Below the pieces are notes generated by a model that made no database searches, was not told where the DNA came from, and saw only the letters and a program-made list of their open reading frames with translations. From contig CAYGBT010000007.1 of the NCBI GenBank assembly GCA_964348275.1, positions 3,046 to 67,045 on the forward strand: a stretch of 64,000 bases of DNA, written 5' to 3'. Every line of letters starts with the position of its first letter. Within the stretch, counting starts at the first letter, position 1. The stretch is from an uncultured bacterium. Its GTDB lineage: Bacteria; Methylomirabilota; Methylomirabilia; Methylomirabilales; CSP1-5. Of the stretch, positions 16,287-62,902 are shown piece after piece. The position numbers were made by a program, and so were the translations under genes.

Positions 16287-17549
16287 TTAGAGTTCTGGTT
16301 TTGCCGGTGAGGGAAGCCCGGCCGGTCGTTCTCGGATCAACGCGACACTGACGAGGGCCGCACCCACCAGTAACAGACAGACGCGAAAAGCCCAGGCGAA
16401 GGCATGGGGCGGGTACAGCCGCGCCCCCTCCCGCATCGCGTCCTGCCAGTGGAAATCGAGGACGAACCCCAACAGGACTTGAAGGACCGCCGCGCCCAGG
16501 AATCCCCCCGTATTCACTATGGCTAATGCGACGCCGACCCGCTCGGGCTGCTGCTCTTTGATGCAGGAGAGGCAAAGCAGGAGGCTGCTCGCGAAAAAGC
16601 CGAAGACGAACAGGTAGGAGCCCAGACGCGACGCCGGGACGAGGTTCGCGGCAGGACCGATCCAGAACAAGGCGTAACAGCCGCCGCCCAACAGGAGGGG
16701 AAGCTTGCGCTGCTGGAAGAGCCGGTCCGAGAGATACCCGATCACGGTCCCCCCCGCGATAAAGCCGAGCACCCCCACGCCGATGAGGTCCCCGGCCTCG
16801 GAACGCGTCAGCCCGTGCACCTGCATGAGGTACGGGGGACCCCACAAGGCAAAGAAGGCGAGATAGGTCCCGGTGATCCCGACCTTGGCGAAAAAGACCG
16901 GCCAGGTCTCCGGGGTCTTGAGCACCGCCCAGAGAGGGCGGAGAAATGGCGTGTGCGTCGCCGCGGGAAGAGCGGCCCAATCTTGAATCATCCAGAAGCA
17001 GCCGAGCGCGATAACGACCGTGATGAACCCGACGCTGTGAAATCCCCACCGCCAGCCCACGACCTCAACCACGCGGGCAAAGGGGCCGCTCGCCACGAAG
17101 CCGCCGAGGAAGCCGACGGTCGTGGTGAGGCCGGTCATCGTCGCGAAGTACTGAGGGGGAAACCAGTCGGCAATCAGCTTCAGGATGTTCACGAACACGG
17201 CCGCCACCCCGACGCCGACCAGGAATCGCCCCAGGTAGGCTGTGGTCAGGTCCGGGGCAGCCCCGAAGATGAACGCGCCGGCTGTCATGATCAGGGCGCT
17301 GGCGGTGATCGTCCGGCGGGGTCCCCATGTGTCCGCCAAAATGCCCGCGGGCATCTGAAGCACGGCGTAGAGGTAGAAATAGAGGGAGGAGAGCCCACCC
17401 AGTCCCACCGCGGCGATCTTGAACGCGGCCATGAGTTGGTCCGAGATGATGCCGAGGGCGAAACGGTGGAAGTTCACGAAAAGGTAGAGGGCCGTCGCCG
17501 TCACCCAGATGATCCATTTTCGCATAGGGCCTCTCATGCGAGATGACAC
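16287..17549 (-). CDS. MFS transporter
   Basis: About 12 hydrophobic helices and a D-R-x-G-R-R-like loop (DTWGPRR). The start is ambiguous (17549, 17537 or 17525). Confidence 0.85.
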   Translation of the reverse strand: MSSRMRGPMRKWIIWVTATALYLFVNFHRFALGIISDQLMAAFKIAAVGLGGLSSLYFYLYAVLQMPAGILADTWGPRRTITASALIMTAGAFIFGAAPDLTTAYLGRFLVGVGVAAVFVNILKLIADWFPPQYFATMTGLTTTVGFLGGFVASGPFARVVEVVGWRWGFHSVGFITVVIALGCFWMIQDWAALPAATHTPFLRPLWAVLKTPETWPVFFAKVGITGTYLAFFALWGPPYLMQVHGLTRSEAGDLIGVGVLGFIAGGTVIGYLSDRLFQQRKLPLLLGGGCYALFWIGPAANLVPASRLGSYLFVFGFFASSLLLCLSCIKEQQPERVGVALAIVNTGGFLGAAVLQVLLGFVLDFHWQDAMREGARLYPPHAFAWAFRVCLLLVGAALVSVALIRERPAGLPSPAKPEL

Positions 17550-22599: not shown

Positions 22600-22629
22600 A
22601 TTTTATTTCATCTTCTTATCCCTACGCAA
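22600..22629 (-). promoter_or_regulatory. Putative promoter of His-rich paralog 2
   Basis: Minus strand reads TTGCGT, 18 nt, TAAAAT. The ATGAAATAAAAT context is shared with paralog 1. Confidence 0.45.
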
Positions 22630-22630
22630 G

Positions 22631-22675
22631 CCCTTCGACGGAGCCTGCCCCGAGCTTAGTCGAGGGGCTCAGGGC
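22631..22675 (-). promoter_or_regulatory. R3 element abutting the -35 of paralog 2
   Basis: CCCTTCGACGGAGCCTGCCCCGAGCTTAGTCGAGGGGCTCAGGGC. Confidence 0.45.
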
Positions 22676-22777
22676 AAGGGGGGAGTCGATAGATTGTTGA
22701 GAGTCAAGGGTTGAAAGCTGAAAGCCACTACATAGCGGTGAGGGGAGAGTTGAGGGCAGTGTGCAAAATTTTCGCAC

Positions 22778-22805
22778 TTGACAGGTCAGGGCGCATAAAT
22801 ATATA
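22778..22805 (+). promoter_or_regulatory. Promoter of sRNA copy 3
   Basis: TTGACA, 16 nt, TATATA, preceded by GTGCAAAATTTTCGCAC. Confidence 0.6.
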
Positions 22806-22812
22806 TAAGGTA

Positions 22813-22993
22813 AGCCCCGAGAGGTTCGATCTGGTCCCCATAACCGGGTCTCGTGATCCGGCGGGAACGGCGCTTCCTGGAACTCGGGAAACCGAGATCT
22901 CACCTGCGGTCCTGGAGGAGCGGAGGGGAGACAAAACAGGAACCGGCCGCCAGAAGGGAGAGATCAGAAGGAATCACTTGGGGCTCAGTTTTT
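22813..22993 (+). ncRNA. Structured sRNA of unknown family, copy 3 (long form)
   Basis: Same closing helix and CCGGGTC-TCGT-GATCCGG hairpin, plus an inserted CTCGG-GAAA-CCGAG hairpin. It ends in T5. Confidence 0.6.
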
Positions 22994-23043
22994 GTTGAGA
23001 GTCTGGAGTCGAGAGATAACCGTTCGGAGTTCGGGCTTACGAG

Positions 23044-23100
23044 CAATTCGAAATCCGAAATTCGAAATCGGAAATCGGAAATCGGTCGTCGGTCGTCGGT
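23044..23100. repeat. Degenerate heptamer tandem array (TCGAAAT/CGGAAAT/CGGTCGT)
   Basis: Eight consecutive 7-nt units can be read directly. Confidence 0.7.
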
Positions 23101-23132
23101 TACCGCCAGGCGGGTTCACACTTCACGACTTA

Positions 23133-23719
23133 GAGTCCGAAGTCCAACGACAGAAGAGCAAGGGCTCGGTGGGACCTTCCTCGGCGGCGCCATTATTCTC
23201 CGATGACTTGATACGTAGAGGCCACGTTACGCACGTGTAGGCGTTGTCATTCGCCAGTGCGGGCCCCCCCACCCGCGCTGCGCTTCGGCGGCGGGACCCC
23301 GGCCGCACGCAAGCCAGATGTCGCCTGCCTCGGAAGGAACCCCCTCCTCGCCCTTCGTAACTTCGGTTGTCGGCCACTTGGTCCCGCCTTCAGAGTCGAG
23401 GGTTCAGCGTTACGAGCAATTCGAAATCCGAAATTCGATATCGGAAATCAGTGGTCGGCCATCGCTATTGCCCCCTTCGCGGCGGCGAGGGGAAGGCCGA
23501 CCTCGGAGGAAGGCGAAACTCGCGCCTCCGTAGAAAAGTCTTGGATCACAAGACACTCACGAACAACATCCGAGGTGCCAGGCGCCACCAACCTTCTCGG
23601 TCACAACACCGGCTTCCGTCCCGGTGCGCCAGGCCCAGGTGAGACCAACGCGCTTGAGCTGTTTCGCCGACGATGAGGAGGGCTTTCCCGAGTTGCCTCC
23701 ACCTACGTCGGACTTCGGC
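23133..23719 (+). repeat. B element copy 1 (~590 bp non-coding repeat, modules X-rev, spacer, Y)
   Basis: Collinear with the reverse complement of 36361-36960. The ends CCGAAGTCCAACG and CGTCGGACTTCGG are inverted. Confidence 0.6.
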
Positions 23720-23826
23720 GAGCGGTTCGGCCGATCTCACCGTCGAGGCCTCAGTCGAGCCGTCACCGGACATCGCTTACCTGGTTTAGGGCTCACAGAC
23801 GGTTCAGGGTTCAGAGTTTAATGATA

Positions 23827-23928
23827 GGGTCTTGGGTGTTAGGTCTTAGGTTCTGGGTGTTGAACCTGACATCTGAATGCCGAGATCTCCAAAACCCAAC
23901 ACCTAACACCCAAGACCTAATACCTAAC
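23827..23928. repeat. Inverted pair of GGTSTTR heptamer arrays forming a long hairpin
   Basis: 23828-23844 is the perfect complement of 23901-23917 (17 bp), with imperfect extension on both sides. Confidence 0.7.
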
Positions 23929-24026
23929 AGTGGTCGGAAAATGCCTACCTGGCTCAGGGTTCAGTGTAGAAAGCTAAGAGCGGAGAGTGGAGGGCTCAGA
24001 GCCCAGTGTCAAGTGGCTCGGAGGGC

Positions 24027-24239
24027 CTAGAATTCGTCTGGGCTTAGACCTGCCTGTCGAATAATGCTGCGGAGGGCGCCAACGGCTATCTCGCGATGAC
24101 GGGGGACGATGACTGTCCGGATGCCTTCACGCGTTTCCTTGCTGAACCTTACATCGCTGCCTTTCTGGCCCACTTCAACAAAACCCGCTGCTTGCAACCT
24201 GCGCTTGACCTCACGGTAAGGGAGCGGGCTAAGCGGCAC
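24027..24239 (-). CDS. hicA: HicA family mRNA-interferase toxin
   Basis: 70 aa with ..L..AGF......GS...F........TVIVPRH.EI..G.LRSIIRQAGLS. Confidence 0.85.
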   Translation of the reverse strand: MPLSPLPYREVKRRLQAAGFVEVGQKGSDVRFSKETREGIRTVIVPRHREIAVGALRSIIRQAGLSPDEF

Positions 24240-35809: not shown

Positions 35810-35937
35810 CGCCCCCTCCTCTTTTCCACGCGTGCTGCAAGAGACCAATCAGCACACCCTTCGTGAGATTTGTCTCCGCATAATACCAAAATTCCGCACG
35901 CGTATGCCTGCATTGCGTCAAAATTTTTCTCTCTCCC

Positions 35938-35967
35938 TTGACAGGTCAGCGCCTACCTCAATATTAA
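35938..35967 (+). promoter_or_regulatory. Promoter of sRNA copy 4
   Basis: TTGACA, 18 nt, TATTAA. Confidence 0.55.
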
Positions 35968-35972
35968 GGGCG

Positions 35973-36153
35973 AGTCCCAAGAGGTACGATCTGGTCCCCA
36001 TCACCGGGTCTTGTGATCCGGGGGGAACGGTGGGACCTGGAACTCGGGAAACCGAGCTCCGAATTCCGGTCCGAACGGAGCGGGAGGAGGAGAAAACAGG
36101 GACCGGCCGCCTGGGTGGAAAGATCAGAACGGATCACTTGGGGCTCATTTTTT
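35973..36153 (+). ncRNA. Structured sRNA of unknown family, copy 4 (long form)
   Basis: AGTCCCAAG..CTTGGGGCT closing helix followed by T6. It has hairpin CCGGGTC-TTGT-GATCCGG and the CTCGG-GAAA-CCGAG insert. Confidence 0.6.
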
Positions 36154-36230
36154 GGTTCAGGGTGCAAGGTTCAGAGTTCAGGGTTGACAGTTCAGAGACG
36201 GTTCAGCGTTCAGAGTTGAGCGCTCAGAGT

Positions 36231-36360: not shown

Positions 36361-36960
36361 GAGTCCAAAGTCCAACGCACAAAGCCCGAAGCAGGTGGGG
36401 GCGGCTCGGGAAAGCCCTCCTCGTCGTTGGCGAAACAGCTCAAGTGGGTTGATCTCACCTGGGCTTAGGGCACCGGGACGGAAGCTGATTTTTTGATCCA
36501 GTAGTTTGGTGGACCCCGGTATCCCGAATGTTGCTCGCGAGTGTCTTGTGATCCAAGACTTTTCTACGGAGGCGCGAGTTTCGCCTTCCTCCGAGGTCGG
36601 CCTTCCCCTCGCCGCCGTGCACGGGGCAATAGCGATGGCCGACCACTGATTTCCGATTTCGAATTTCGGATTTCGAATTGGTCGTAACGCTGAACCGTCG
36701 ACTCTGAAGGCTGGACCAAGTGCCCAACGATCGAACTTCCGAAAGGCGAGGAGGGGGTTCCTTCCGAGGCGGGCGACATCTGGCTTGCGTCGGCTCCGAA
36801 GGCATTCGGAAAGCGCAGCGCAGGTGGGGGTGGCCCGCACTGGCGAATGACAACGCCTATGCATGCGTAAAGTTGCCTCTGCGCGTCAAGTCCGCGGAGA
36901 ATAATGGCGCCGCCGAGGAAGGTCCCTCCAAGCCCTTACTCTTCTGTCGTATGACTTCGC
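36361..36960 (-). repeat. B element copy 2 (inverted)
   Basis: Reverse complement is collinear with 23133-23719. Confidence 0.6.
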
Positions 36961-37058
36961 CTGACGCGTCCACGGCTCCCATACGCCTTCTTGTGAATCT
37001 GTGTATTTGTGGTGTAAGATTAGAAACTAGCGGCAAAGGATGGGAGTGGGGTTGTTTG

Positions 37059-41285: not shown

Positions 41286-41877
41286 TCCGATGTCCGACGA
41301 CAAAAGAAGAAGGACTCGGTGTGGGACCTTCCTCGGCGGCGAGGGGAAGGCCGACCTCGGAGGAAGGCGTAAACCGCTTTCCGGGCCGTCGAGCAGGACA
41401 CGCACGCCCCTCGCCCCGGGCCTCCTGTTGTTTCAGCCGAGGGAGGACCGTTCCGCTCGTCGGCGGAAAATTCCACTGGTCAATACTTCGTCAAGTTGGG
41501 TGTTCCGCACGAACGCCCTTCGGCAAGGCAACAGGAGGGCCACCCCCACCTACGCTGCGCTTTCCGAATGCCTTCGGAACCGTCGAAAACCAGTTTCCGC
41601 CTTCCTCGCGCATCCGGCCCCCCTCGGCTTACCAACCTAAATCTTGACGTTTCTAACGCTAGGCCAGCGCGTGCATGCCCCGAGCGACATTGCCGAAAGT
41701 CCGAAAGCCTTCGGACCGACTCAGGGTCGCCGCGGGCCCGAAGGGTTCCGGGCTCTTGCGGAGAGGCCTGGAGCGAGGGGCCAAAGGTGTTGGTCCAACA
41801 GATTCAACAAGCCGAGGAGTTTTTCCGACGACGAGGAGGGGTTTCCCAAGTCGTCCACTCCTGCGTCGGACATCGCC
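41286..41877 (+). repeat. B element copy 4 (divergent, recombined)
   Basis: Shares the left end TCCGATGTCCGACGAC, the GGCGAGGGGAAGGCCGACCTCGGAGGAAGGCG block, the X-module block and the right end GCGTCGGACATCG. Confidence 0.45.
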
Positions 41878-44285: not shown

Positions 44286-44780
44286 CAGTCCGACGTCCTA
44301 TGTCCGAAGTCGCCAAAAGGCGGGGAGGGGGTTCCTTCCGAGGCAGGCGGCATCTGGCTTGCGTCGGTTCCGAAGGCATTCGGAAAGCGGAGCGCAGGTG
44401 GGGGTGGCCCGCACTGGCGAAATACAACGCCTAAGCTTGCGTAAGGTTGCCCCTCTGCACCAAGTCCTCGGAGAATTATGGCGCCGCCGAGGAAGGTCCC
44501 TCCGAGCCTCTAGTCGACGGCCATCGCTATTGCCCCTTTCGCGGCGGCGAGGGGAAGGCCGACCTCGCAGGAAGGCAAAACTCGCGCCTCCGTAGAAAAG
44601 TCTTGGATCACAAGATACTCACGAACAACATCCGAGGTACCGGGGGCACCAAACTACTGAATCGCAAAATCGGCTTCCGTCCCGGTGCGCCAGGCCCAGA
44701 TGAGATCAACCCGCTTGAGCTGTTTTGCCGACGACGAGGAGAGGTTTCCCGAGTCGCCCCCACCTACCTCGGACTTCGCC
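44286..44780 (+). repeat. B element copy 3 with module X inverted relative to Y and no spacer
   Basis: 44300-44510 matches 36740-36935 on the same strand, whereas 44515-44780 matches 23457-23720 on the same strand. Confidence 0.55.
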
Positions 44781-61575: not shown

Positions 61576-62902
61576 GCTTGCGCTCCCACCGGGTCGAGCG
61601 GCAACGCCTTTGTAAGAGAACCATGCGGGCCACCCAGTCCAGGAGGAAGGCCCACCAGACATAGGCCACGCTGAGGCCCAACCAAGCGGCGGCCGCGGCC
61701 AGAGGGACCCGGACTCCCCAGATGCCAAGAATCGTCACCCTCAGAATATACGGCGTATCCCCCGCCCCCCGTAGGGCTCCCTGAAGCACCAACGTCACCG
61801 CAAGCGGGATCTGACTGACTGCGGCGATTCGAAGGAAGATGACCCCTAACCGAATCACTTCCCCATCGGCCGTGAACAGTCTGACAAGGGGCTCGGGGAA
61901 GAGGAAGAAGAGGACCCCCATCCCCCCCATGAAGAGGATGCCAAGCCGGTTGGCTTCCGACATCCCCAGGCGGGCGCGGAGTATATCCCCTGCCCCCACG
62001 CTCTGTCCGACCAGGGTCGATGCGGCCACCCCCAGTGCCAACCCCGGCATAAAGGAGAACGATTCGATATTCACCCCTAACTGGTGCGTGGCAAACGCTG
62101 CGGTCCCGTACAGGAGCAGGATCTTGGCATAGACCGCCTGGCCCGCCTGCCACACCATCCGGTCAACGGCTACAGGCCACCCCACCCGCACAATGGGGCG
62201 GATATAGGATGTGTCCCAGCTCCCTCTCGCCAGATACCCCCTGGCCCATCCTCGCCACCAAAGAAGGAGGACCCCTAAGACCTCTGCAGATGCGACCGCG
62301 ATGGCCGCCCCCTGGACCCCTAGAGCGGGAAGACCCAAGTAGCCGTAGATCAAAGGAACGGCCAGACTGATGTGGAACAGATTCAGGACCAGGACAATCA
62401 GCATCGGTGTCCGGGTATCGCCGGCGCCGTGCATCGTGGCCGTGAGAACATAGACCAAGGCGGTGGCGGGAAAGGCCAGAAACACCCAAAAACAGTATTC
62501 GTTCACCAGAATCTTCACCACATCGGAAGCTCCCAGGAAGCTCGCCGCTTCAGCGGCATATAGAACCCCGGCAACGGCGACGGGGAACGCCAGGACCAGC
62601 GTTACTATGAGACCGTGAATCGCTATCCGTCCCGCTTCTACCCGCCGGGTTGCTCCCCACCGCTGAGCCACCGTGACCAATGTCCCGGTGCTGACCCCCC
62701 ACACCAAGGTCATGCTGATAAAGACGAGCAGTTGGCCAAGCCCAACGCCCGCAACCGCCGGAGCACCGAGTCCGCCGACCAGAAAGATATCTACGGCGGT
62801 CACCATCCGGTGGAGCAGGTTCGAGACGGCAACGGGGAGGGCCAAGCGGAGGACTTCCCGCCGGATCTCTGCTCTTTGGGGCCCCTTCTCCTCTGTCAAC
62901 AC
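61529..62902 (-). CDS. MATE family efflux transporter
   Basis: 12-helix protein with a NorM-like N-terminus. Confidence 0.9.
   Translation of the reverse strand: MLTEEKGPQRAEIRREVLRLALPVAVSNLLHRMVTAVDIFLVGGLGAPAVAGVGLGQLLVFISMTLVWGVSTGTLVTVAQRWGATRRVEAGRIAIHGLIVTLVLAFPVAVAGVLYAAEAASFLGASDVVKILVNEYCFWVFLAFPATALVYVLTATMHGAGDTRTPMLIVLVLNLFHISLAVPLIYGYLGLPALGVQGAAIAVASAEVLGVLLLWWRGWARGYLARGSWDTSYIRPIVRVGWPVAVDRMVWQAGQAVYAKILLLYGTAAFATHQLGVNIESFSFMPGLALGVAASTLVGQSVGAGDILRARLGMSEANRLGILFMGGMGVLFFLFPEPLVRLFTADGEVIRLGVIFLRIAAVSQIPLAVTLVLQGALRGAGDTPYILRVTILGIWGVRVPLAAAAAWLGLSVAYVWWAFLLDWVARMVLLQRRCRSTRWERKHVEIAPVGLGQVDGD

Follow-up and report, generated by a model that had tools for sequence, protein, structure and literature searches.

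Modular, structured and genus-restricted intergenic elements in an uncultured NC10 bacterium

Introduction

Structured intergenic repeats such as REP, ERIC and Correia elements shape operon expression and genome plasticity, and repeats of these types are, to our knowledge, known almost only from cultured Proteobacteria and Firmicutes. REP sequences are 20-40 nt long and REPINs ~100 nt. The REP/BIME and REPIN-RAYT systems of Enterobacteria and Pseudomonas are non-coding, intergenic and palindromic, and are built from mosaic modules, with an inverted doublet that is copied as a unit; they leave no target duplications, are lineage-restricted and multicopy, and are often co-transcribed in operons. 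The ERIC/IRU, Correia (NEMIS) and RUP-type MITEs are imperfect palindromes of 100-250 nt that fold end to end, carry internal indel variants at fixed places, lie in transcribed intergenic regions and differ in presence or absence between relatives. Correia and RUP elements are also bounded by terminal inverted repeats, duplicate a defined target (TA and similar) and have an IS as candidate partner. Large palindromes in mosaic combination also make up the RIME (Rhizobium-specific intergenic mosaic elements), which are ~100 nt long, are limited to a genus or family, and have no heptamer-array context and no known mover. Arrays of 7-nt units are familiar from the cyanobacterial STRR-type repeats, and large structure is familiar from HEARO/IscB omega RNA, OLE, GOLLD and ROOL, of which HEARO is also multicopy and associated with mobile DNA.

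Here we analyze a repeat from an uncultured NC10 lineage whose two modules, A and B, share, length apart, each of the REP/BIME and REPIN-RAYT features given above, as well as the size range, end-to-end folding, internal deletions, transcribed intergenic setting and presence/absence variation of the ERIC, Correia and RUP group, and the restricted distribution, palindromic mosaicism and missing mover of RIME. On the weight of evidence we place them with these non-autonomous structured intergenic repeats, i.e., REP/BIME/REPIN, ERIC, RIME and Correia. They differ from these families by their size (~200 nt), a branched and conserved interior, a seat at the apex of heptamer-array hairpins, and the lack of a target duplication and of a candidate transposase; unlike REP and REPIN elements they flank no RAYT gene, they have neither the duplication nor the partner of Correia and RUP, and their interior conservation and internal-helix covariation are much stronger than those of ERIC, Correia and RUP. 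Their flanking arrays resemble STRR arrays in unit length and are inverted; in contrast to ordinary heptamer hairpins, the apex is a ~200-nt element with its own conserved sequence rather than a short loop. Unlike HEARO, OLE, GOLLD and ROOL, which they resemble in being structured, they have no cmscan match and no associated protein gene, and TnpB is lacking from their genus. An uncultured NC10 lineage thus carries an unusually large, strongly conserved and strongly covarying repeat family without a recognizable mover, and in this family heptamer hairpins and mosaic repeats, both of them unexplained, come together.

Results

The repeat is a composite of two modules

The window, i.e., the whole 64,000-nt stretch that was analyzed (G000:C7:3046-67045), belongs to a MAG of 3.43 Mb in 142 contigs with ~60% G+C. 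A repeat of ~590 bases had been annotated in it, and we recovered this repeat: positions 23133-23719 match the reverse complement of 36361-36960 at 87-89% identity. Repeat finding resolved the match into inverted arms at 23307-23715 and 36382-36790 (409 nt, 89%) and at 23138-23270 and 36827-36959 (88%), and whole-genome BLAST aligned copy 1 with copy 2 at 87% over 578 nt (E 5e-200). The inverted end motifs described for it are also present, GAGTCCGAAGTCCAACG at 23133 and CGTCGGACTTCGG at 23707, and they pair in the minimum-free-energy fold of either strand; the small hairpins listed in the initial annotation were all found in the sequence. Its description as a single ~600-bp element had to be given up. 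The repeat is a composite of module A (~202 nt), a heptamer-repeat spacer and module B (~229 nt), and each module also occurs alone across the genome.

In copy 1, the outer left flank (23133-23156, plus strand) consists of the heptamer-type words GTCCGAA GTCCAAC GAC and forms an imperfect inverted pair with 23704-23719; the four composites share homology from 23135-23138 onward. Module A, 202 nt long, occupies 23157-23358 on the plus strand (221.4 bits with covariance model R1, which was built from 31 A copies; alignment A1 and RNAalifold). It is followed by a spacer of degenerate heptamer arrays at 23359-23474 (CGGTTGT and GAAATCC/GAAATTC in the sequence; repeat family D8) and by module B, 229 nt long, at 23475-23703 on the plus strand (242.1 bits with model R2, built from 24 B copies; alignment A2 and RNAalifold). 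The right end, 23704-23775 on the plus strand, holds the outer inverted repeat (23707-23719) and a ~70-nt repeat, module C, as found by BLAST against the genome. Module C (23706-23775) has ~12 copies in the genome and is often found directly 3' of B, and also alone.

Further copies lie in the window. In copy 2, B lies at 36394-36622 (minus strand, R2 239.3 bits) and A at 36739-36940 (minus strand, R1 228.5 bits), the latter with an alternative internal hairpin, CCGAATGCCTTCGG. The rearranged copy reported at 44286-44780 is indeed there: its A, at 44313-44514 on the minus strand (R1 218.7 bits), is inverted relative to its B partner at 44537-44764 on the plus strand (R2 228.2 bits). The copy at 41286-41877 that had been called divergent is also real, but it is a mosaic of A and B pieces. 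At its junction (41310-41377, plus strand; read from the sequence and from BLAST, repeat and nhmmer arm matches) a fragment of the A 5' arm (41310-41339) is fused to a B 5' arm (41335-41377) through GGCGGCG, a word common to both. The B 3' arm follows at 41814-41869 on the plus strand, 444 nt from its 5' arm (repeat family D6; nhmmer pairing), and between the two B arms lies a diverged A-type element of another subfamily (41434-41630, plus strand; R1 45.8 bits, full length 1-202). The mosaic region 41300-41640, with this diverged element, is duplicated near a contig end at G000:C52:~16880-17400, and the A-type elements at 41434-41630 and C52:17103-17299 are identical in the model alignment.

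Searched against the whole genome with BLAST, the 587-nt repeat gave 39 matches, most of them partial and confined to query positions 27-234, 128-199 or 345-572. Copies longer than 150 nt by BLAST numbered 11 for A and 8 for B, and the covariance models found 32 A-type (R1) and 16 B-type (R2) matches in the 3.4-Mb genome. The full A-spacer-B unit is present at four loci, two on the contig of the window and one each on contigs C27 and C101. With a wider query, the 1.46-kb gap between the gene of a His-rich protein and hicAB was resolved as a tiling of separately repeated modules, in the order of a 240-nt module at 22759-23001, heptamer arrays, A, heptamer arrays, B and C. The first of these belongs to a separate repeat of ~230 nt with four copies on the contig (22759-23001, 35932-36154, 17688-17911 and 19750-19967), of which the copies at 22759-23001 and 35932-36154 adjoin doublet copies 1 and 2. 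A promoter-like TTGACA-16-AATATT lies within the second of these two, at 35938-35965.

The modules are non-coding and match no known RNA family

The non-coding reading given to the repeat earlier was based in part on missing 3-nt periodicity, and it holds in the larger alignments: column entropy has no 3-nt phase in either A or B (31 and 24 aligned copies, respectively), every reading frame is broken in many copies of both modules, and stop codons fall in all six frames across the copies. Open frames do run over the copies, as had been noted, with ORFs of 84-168 codons in several frames. Coding potential was rejected because the variation is aperiodic and stops are scattered through all frames. 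These overlapping ORFs, and the position of several copies at contig ends, are what would speak for a degraded or fast-evolving protein-coding family, or for an artefact of assembly or binning. In addition to the absence of codon periodicity and the stops in all frames in different copies, the same elements recur in the separately assembled genomes of 14 species and on 86 contigs from metagenomes, and we regard this reading as refuted, with scarcely any credibility left to it.

A match to one of the large ornate RNA families (OLE, GOLLD, ROOL or HEARO) had been put forward as a check. Rfam cmscan of the whole 64-kb window returned no match at the gathering score, and at E<=10 the region 22600-24100 gave nothing relevant, i.e., only chance matches to microRNA and lncRNA models, which lay outside the modules.

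Both modules fold from end to end and covary

Consensus folding with RNAalifold showed that the 5' and 3' ends of each module pair over ~35 nt into a closing helix of ~35 bp; these arms form imperfect terminal inverted repeats of ~35 nt, which close every A and B copy. Besides the closing helix, A has internal helices, and these covary. When 40 copies were aligned independently with MAFFT, 93.5% of cells were able to pair, compared with 81.3% in column shuffles and 44-58% with slid partners, and double changes were counted in 100 cells where 32 were expected. In 77 distinct copies, in an alignment that was fitted to the structure, 37 of 48 pairs had double changes, internal helices included. 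The R1 search also returned a second tier of ~100 full-length, diverged A-type elements scoring 25-90 bits. These keep the central core of A, i.e., GGCCACCCCCRCCTGCGCTNCGCT, a hairpin and then CGCAAACCAG, and in their arms whole helices have been replaced in a compensatory manner (e.g., GGAGGG/CCCTCC, GGGAAG/CTTCCC and GGGGAG/CTCCCC).

The initial annotation had left two options for the repeat, a non-autonomous mobile element or a structured RNA family. Both options stand, since strong structure and the behavior of non-autonomous repeats are combined in the modules. Under the second, A and B would be genes or cis-acting modules of a new ~200-nt structured RNA family with many copies per genome, and their mobile-looking spread would reflect duplication and loss of functional copies; candidate roles would be a protein-sponging or guide-type sRNA, or an mRNA-embedded element of stability or processing. 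We treat this as a tentative alternative with an appreciable, though minor, chance of being correct. In its favor are the thirteen helices with compensatory changes, internal ones included, and the constraint on A: its length is fixed at ~197-202 nt in more than 150 copies, and 70 columns are invariant across 13 species, with long invariant words in single-stranded positions, namely CCACCCCC and CGCAAACCAG. Between species, A copies are 86% identical, above the flanks of orthologous sites (69-86%). Constraint of this kind (70 invariant columns, 86% between species) is more typical of functional RNA than of decaying MITE copies. The closing stem also contains a conserved 2x2 mismatch, which reads TC/TC in A (strand as written) and GA/GA in B; tandem G.A mismatches are a common RNA motif, and the one here, on the strand of B and of reverse-complemented A, is a further point for an RNA.

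The strand on which the structure is preserved was assessed by comparing G-U with A-C pairs. First counts favored the strand as written, with 63 G-U against 24 A-C for A and 43 against 6 for B; the B excess is a point for an RNA family, although 23 of its 43 G-U pairs come from one fixed column. In the large A alignment the ratio is nearly symmetric, with 172 G-U and 134 A-C, 20 pairs leaning one way and 15 the other, and the A consensus folds at -67.6 kcal/mol on the reverse strand compared with -52.3 kcal/mol as written. A one-strand RNA family is typically far more asymmetric. Because the ratio is close to symmetric and A folds no worse on its reverse strand, we lean toward palindromy at the DNA level, rather than a one-strand RNA, as the better fit to the strand signal of A. 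Also against RNA genes, neither module carries a common promoter or terminator, and there is no Rfam match. Consensus scans predicted no promoter in A or B, and no terminator in or beside them save for a weak hairpin within B, on the opposite strand, that is not conserved; homology between copies stops at the closing stem, and the flanks are unconserved.

The doublet joins two members of one superfamily in inverted orientation

Model R2 matches A-type elements, always on the strand opposite to R1. At G009:C5:7240-7445, for example, R2 scored 50 bits on the plus strand and R1 92 bits on the minus strand at the same place, and in the window such opposite-strand R2 matches fall at 41427-41637 (minus), 44310-44517 (plus) and 23318-23361 (minus). 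Aligned by eye, the B 5' arm and the reverse complement of the 3' arm of an A subfamily are alike at ~35 of 40 positions. Since the B arms are homologous to reverse-complemented A-type arms, the composite joins two superfamily members as an inverted doublet. Although homologous in opposite orientation, A and B occupy the same strand in the doublet, which is another point against the RNA-family explanation.

The elements are restricted to one NC10 genus

With R1, all 14 genomes of the genus (NC10, CSP1-5 lineage) proved to contain A-type elements, and none of 52 genomes from the seven other genera of the order did. This genome, with 32, has the most; others have 28, 20, 16 and 14, and the poorest have 2-3. 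B is present in the same 14 genomes, and the R2 search did not find it in the sister genus. The A-spacer-B doublet is limited to the genome of the window: A and B were always apart in the 40 relatives searched, and this genome is the single one among 14 species to carry the doublet.

An exact-word scan with a 30-nt A pattern, run on one genome per species, retrieved 19 stretches, 18 of them from MAGs whose titles read Methylomirabilota, Methylomirabilales or NC10, with 'NC10 bacterium CSP1-5' among them. One exact match (L077, JBHICF010000130.1) lies on a contig of a Nitrospiraceae-titled MAG, which probably reflects faulty binning or labelling and not a second host lineage. A 24-nt core word occurred on 86 metagenome contigs, and the 80 loci returned from these gave 85 R1 matches, most of them full length (~197-202 nt). 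Exact A and B words had no match in viral contigs, and there is accordingly no sign of phage carriage.

The modules lie between heptamer arrays in intergenic DNA

Gene calls were made with a crude codon-based ORF caller and gave a coding density of ~80%. Sequence with three or more other copies makes up 8.2% of intergenic bases and 1.5% of coding bases. TRF reported 848 period-7 arrays, 575 of them intergenic, against 191 of 1512 for period 6, and the commonest intergenic period-7 units are of the GTGAACC, CACAGTT, CATGGTT and GAATTTC types. About 91 intergenic gaps in this genome exceed 1 kb. A and B are both flanked, on either side, by inverted arrays of 7-nt units.

Copies of A proper usually lie in gaps between co-directional genes, 10-130 nt from both neighbors, and in these gaps their orientation is biased 18 to 5, which favors an RNA family, although the loci are not all independent and the gene caller is crude. 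The orientation of the whole A-type family in this genome is random (9 sense and 9 antisense among the 29 copies examined), which does not. All such counts are approximate, since at the orthologous loci L032 and L033 the caller assigned the genes to opposite strands. B is often directly adjacent to the 3' end of a convergent gene. Three of the four doublets lie upstream of divergently oriented, unrelated genes, with 85-130 nt in between (window 36940-37056; G000:C27:767-853; C101:969-1100), so that the promoters of these three genes must lie in, or right beside, the A end. In the window, A copy 2 ends 115 nt before the start, at 37056, of a response-regulator gene (OmpR-type, from the gene call and Pfam); the other two genes, judged from their protein sequences, presumably encode an EgtD-like methyltransferase and Era.

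Orthologous sites gain, lose and exchange their occupants

We located the flanks of 34 module copies from relatives in this genome, using ~840 nt of flanking sequence, mostly coding and 69-86% identical. The search for empty sites that the initial annotation had recommended was productive: at least seven sites are filled in a relative and ~200 nt shorter and module-free here (L036/L057 versus C72, L037 versus C2, L038 versus C118, L053/L056 versus C47, L061 versus C18, L069 versus C2 and L071 versus C3). The empty site on C72 is an inverted pair of heptamer arrays, i.e., a plain heptamer hairpin. At two sites one species has A where another has B (L054 versus C27 and L070 versus C9). Outside the modules, the intergenic DNA of different species was unalignable and base-level alignment of filled with empty sites failed; the exact boundaries of insertion are undefined because the species compared are too diverged.

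Internally deleted derivatives were also found. On C93, where two species have a full A, this genome has a 63-nt mini-A with an internal deletion, followed by B and C; on C22, five or six species have B, and this genome has a mini-B and extra B 5' arms. Such arm-only mini forms are 59-82 nt long and lack the interior. In the tree of A copies there was no grouping by genome, copies at one orthologous site (G008/G011, G009 and G000:C100) fell into different clades, and mean identity was 0.847 within genomes and 0.861 between genomes. For a family of RNA genes, both the change of occupants at orthologous sites and the persistence of arm-only derivatives without the conserved interior are unfavorable. 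A repeat or mobile element is favored over RNA genes by the gain, loss and exchange at sites, the arm-only derivatives, the mosaics, the absence of a promoter and terminator and the weak strand asymmetry of the A family.

No dedicated mover was found beside the elements

Target-site duplications, also proposed as a check, were sought at the module junctions, and none of constant length was present. The best direct repeat averaged 3.1 nt at A junctions and 2.6 nt in shuffled pairings (2.1 and 2.4 nt for B); what matches is a heptamer word common to both sides (GAC/CGAC), and its offset varies. An extension of the stem into the flanks by ~2 bp was more frequent than in shuffled pairings, and the flanks share heptamer consensus words. 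When arms were paired across this genome with nhmmer, the inner distances were 112-148 nt, except in four pairs, which are mosaics (389-529 nt). No pair spans kilobases, and this genome holds no cargo-bearing relative.

The contig of the window has none of this genome's matches to Y1, TnpB or RVT_1. TnpB (PF07282) is absent from the 14 genomes of the genus, while control genomes were positive; this and the lack of an Rfam match speak against a TnpB-type mover or a HEARO omega RNA. No RVT_1 reverse transcriptase was present in this genome, and 10 of the genus's 14 genomes lack it. Two relatives, G006 and G010, have 17 and 6 RVT_1 matches, mostly on short contigs. The long repeats of the genome were considered as IS elements and proved to be ordinary paralogous genes.

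Y1_Tnp had nine matches in this genome, eight of them called genes (G000 contigs C53, C64, C10, C42, C41, C46, C14 and C9) and one a frame broken by stop codons (C1). Several of the proteins have a tail resembling the DnaA C-terminal helix-turn-helix. The elements could then be REPIN-like doublets and singlets moved as single-stranded DNA hairpins by a RAYT-like Y1 (HUH) transposase of the genome, and the three proteins tested, at 68-79 bits on NCBIfam REP_Tyr_transpos (NF047646; cut-off 80), are indeed RAYT-like; the hairpin-closed form, lack of target duplication, inverted doublet and pairing kept by compensatory change all agree with such a system. However, the 1.5 kb around each of the nine Y1 loci contain no A/B-type element, weak ones included (BLAST and unfiltered models; best score 12.7 bits). 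Y1 genes occur in eight of eight genera of the order and the elements in one of the eight, and five genomes of the genus with A or B copies have no Y1 match, three of these being 92-97% complete, with the reservation that MAGs are incomplete. At ~200 nt and with a branched interior, the elements are also far larger than a REP or REPIN. We consider movement by these transposases improbable.

Separate from A and B, direct repeats of ~150 nt bracket one RAYT-like gene and its neighbor (G000:C14:59737-59886 and 61824-61973), and others lie at C67:437-586 and C37:7134-7260. They end in a GC hairpin and a T7 run, are unrelated to A and B, and look like a small terminated RNA or element ends.

Discussion

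On balance, we hold it probable that the repeat is an inverted doublet of A and B, two members of a genus-specific superfamily of ~200-nt non-coding elements, which are non-autonomous and are gained, lost, replaced and recombined among intergenic hairpin sites. Of the two options first proposed, this is the mobile one, favored by the turnover of sites, the mini forms and the missing promoter and terminator. Each element would be a folded unit, in which the ~35-bp closing helix common to the superfamily encloses an interior that differs between the A subfamilies and B, and its place would be at the apex of the hairpins, built of inverted heptamer arrays, with which the intergenic gaps of this lineage are filled. 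Propagation may depend on a folded single-stranded form, either DNA or RNA. Transfer from site to site would probably proceed through the flanking heptamer arrays, as substrates of recombination or template switching, with no dedicated transposase, and the A-spacer-B doublet would in addition have been copied to at least four unrelated loci in this genome. Elements inside operons would be co-transcribed passively.

A bolder proposal, which we regard as speculative and rather unlikely, is that the A family, and B with it, represents a new kind of structured, multi-helix RNA of ~200 nt; the RNA itself, selfish or domesticated, would be what moves or is selected, with up to 32 copies per genome in one NC10 genus. 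The words CCACCCCC and CGCAAACCAG, together with the tandem G.A stem, would then serve as binding sites for a protein of the host or of the element, and integration would produce or employ the heptamer arrays. If the elements are transcribed as discrete RNAs, they would constitute a new multicopy RNA class.

Under the reading that we prefer, that of non-autonomous repeats, the more than 150 aligned copies with their filled and empty sites form a test bed for spread without a transposase. The A and B repeats also have a practical effect on sequence data, in that they break MAG assemblies and generate spurious ORFs of 80-170 codons.
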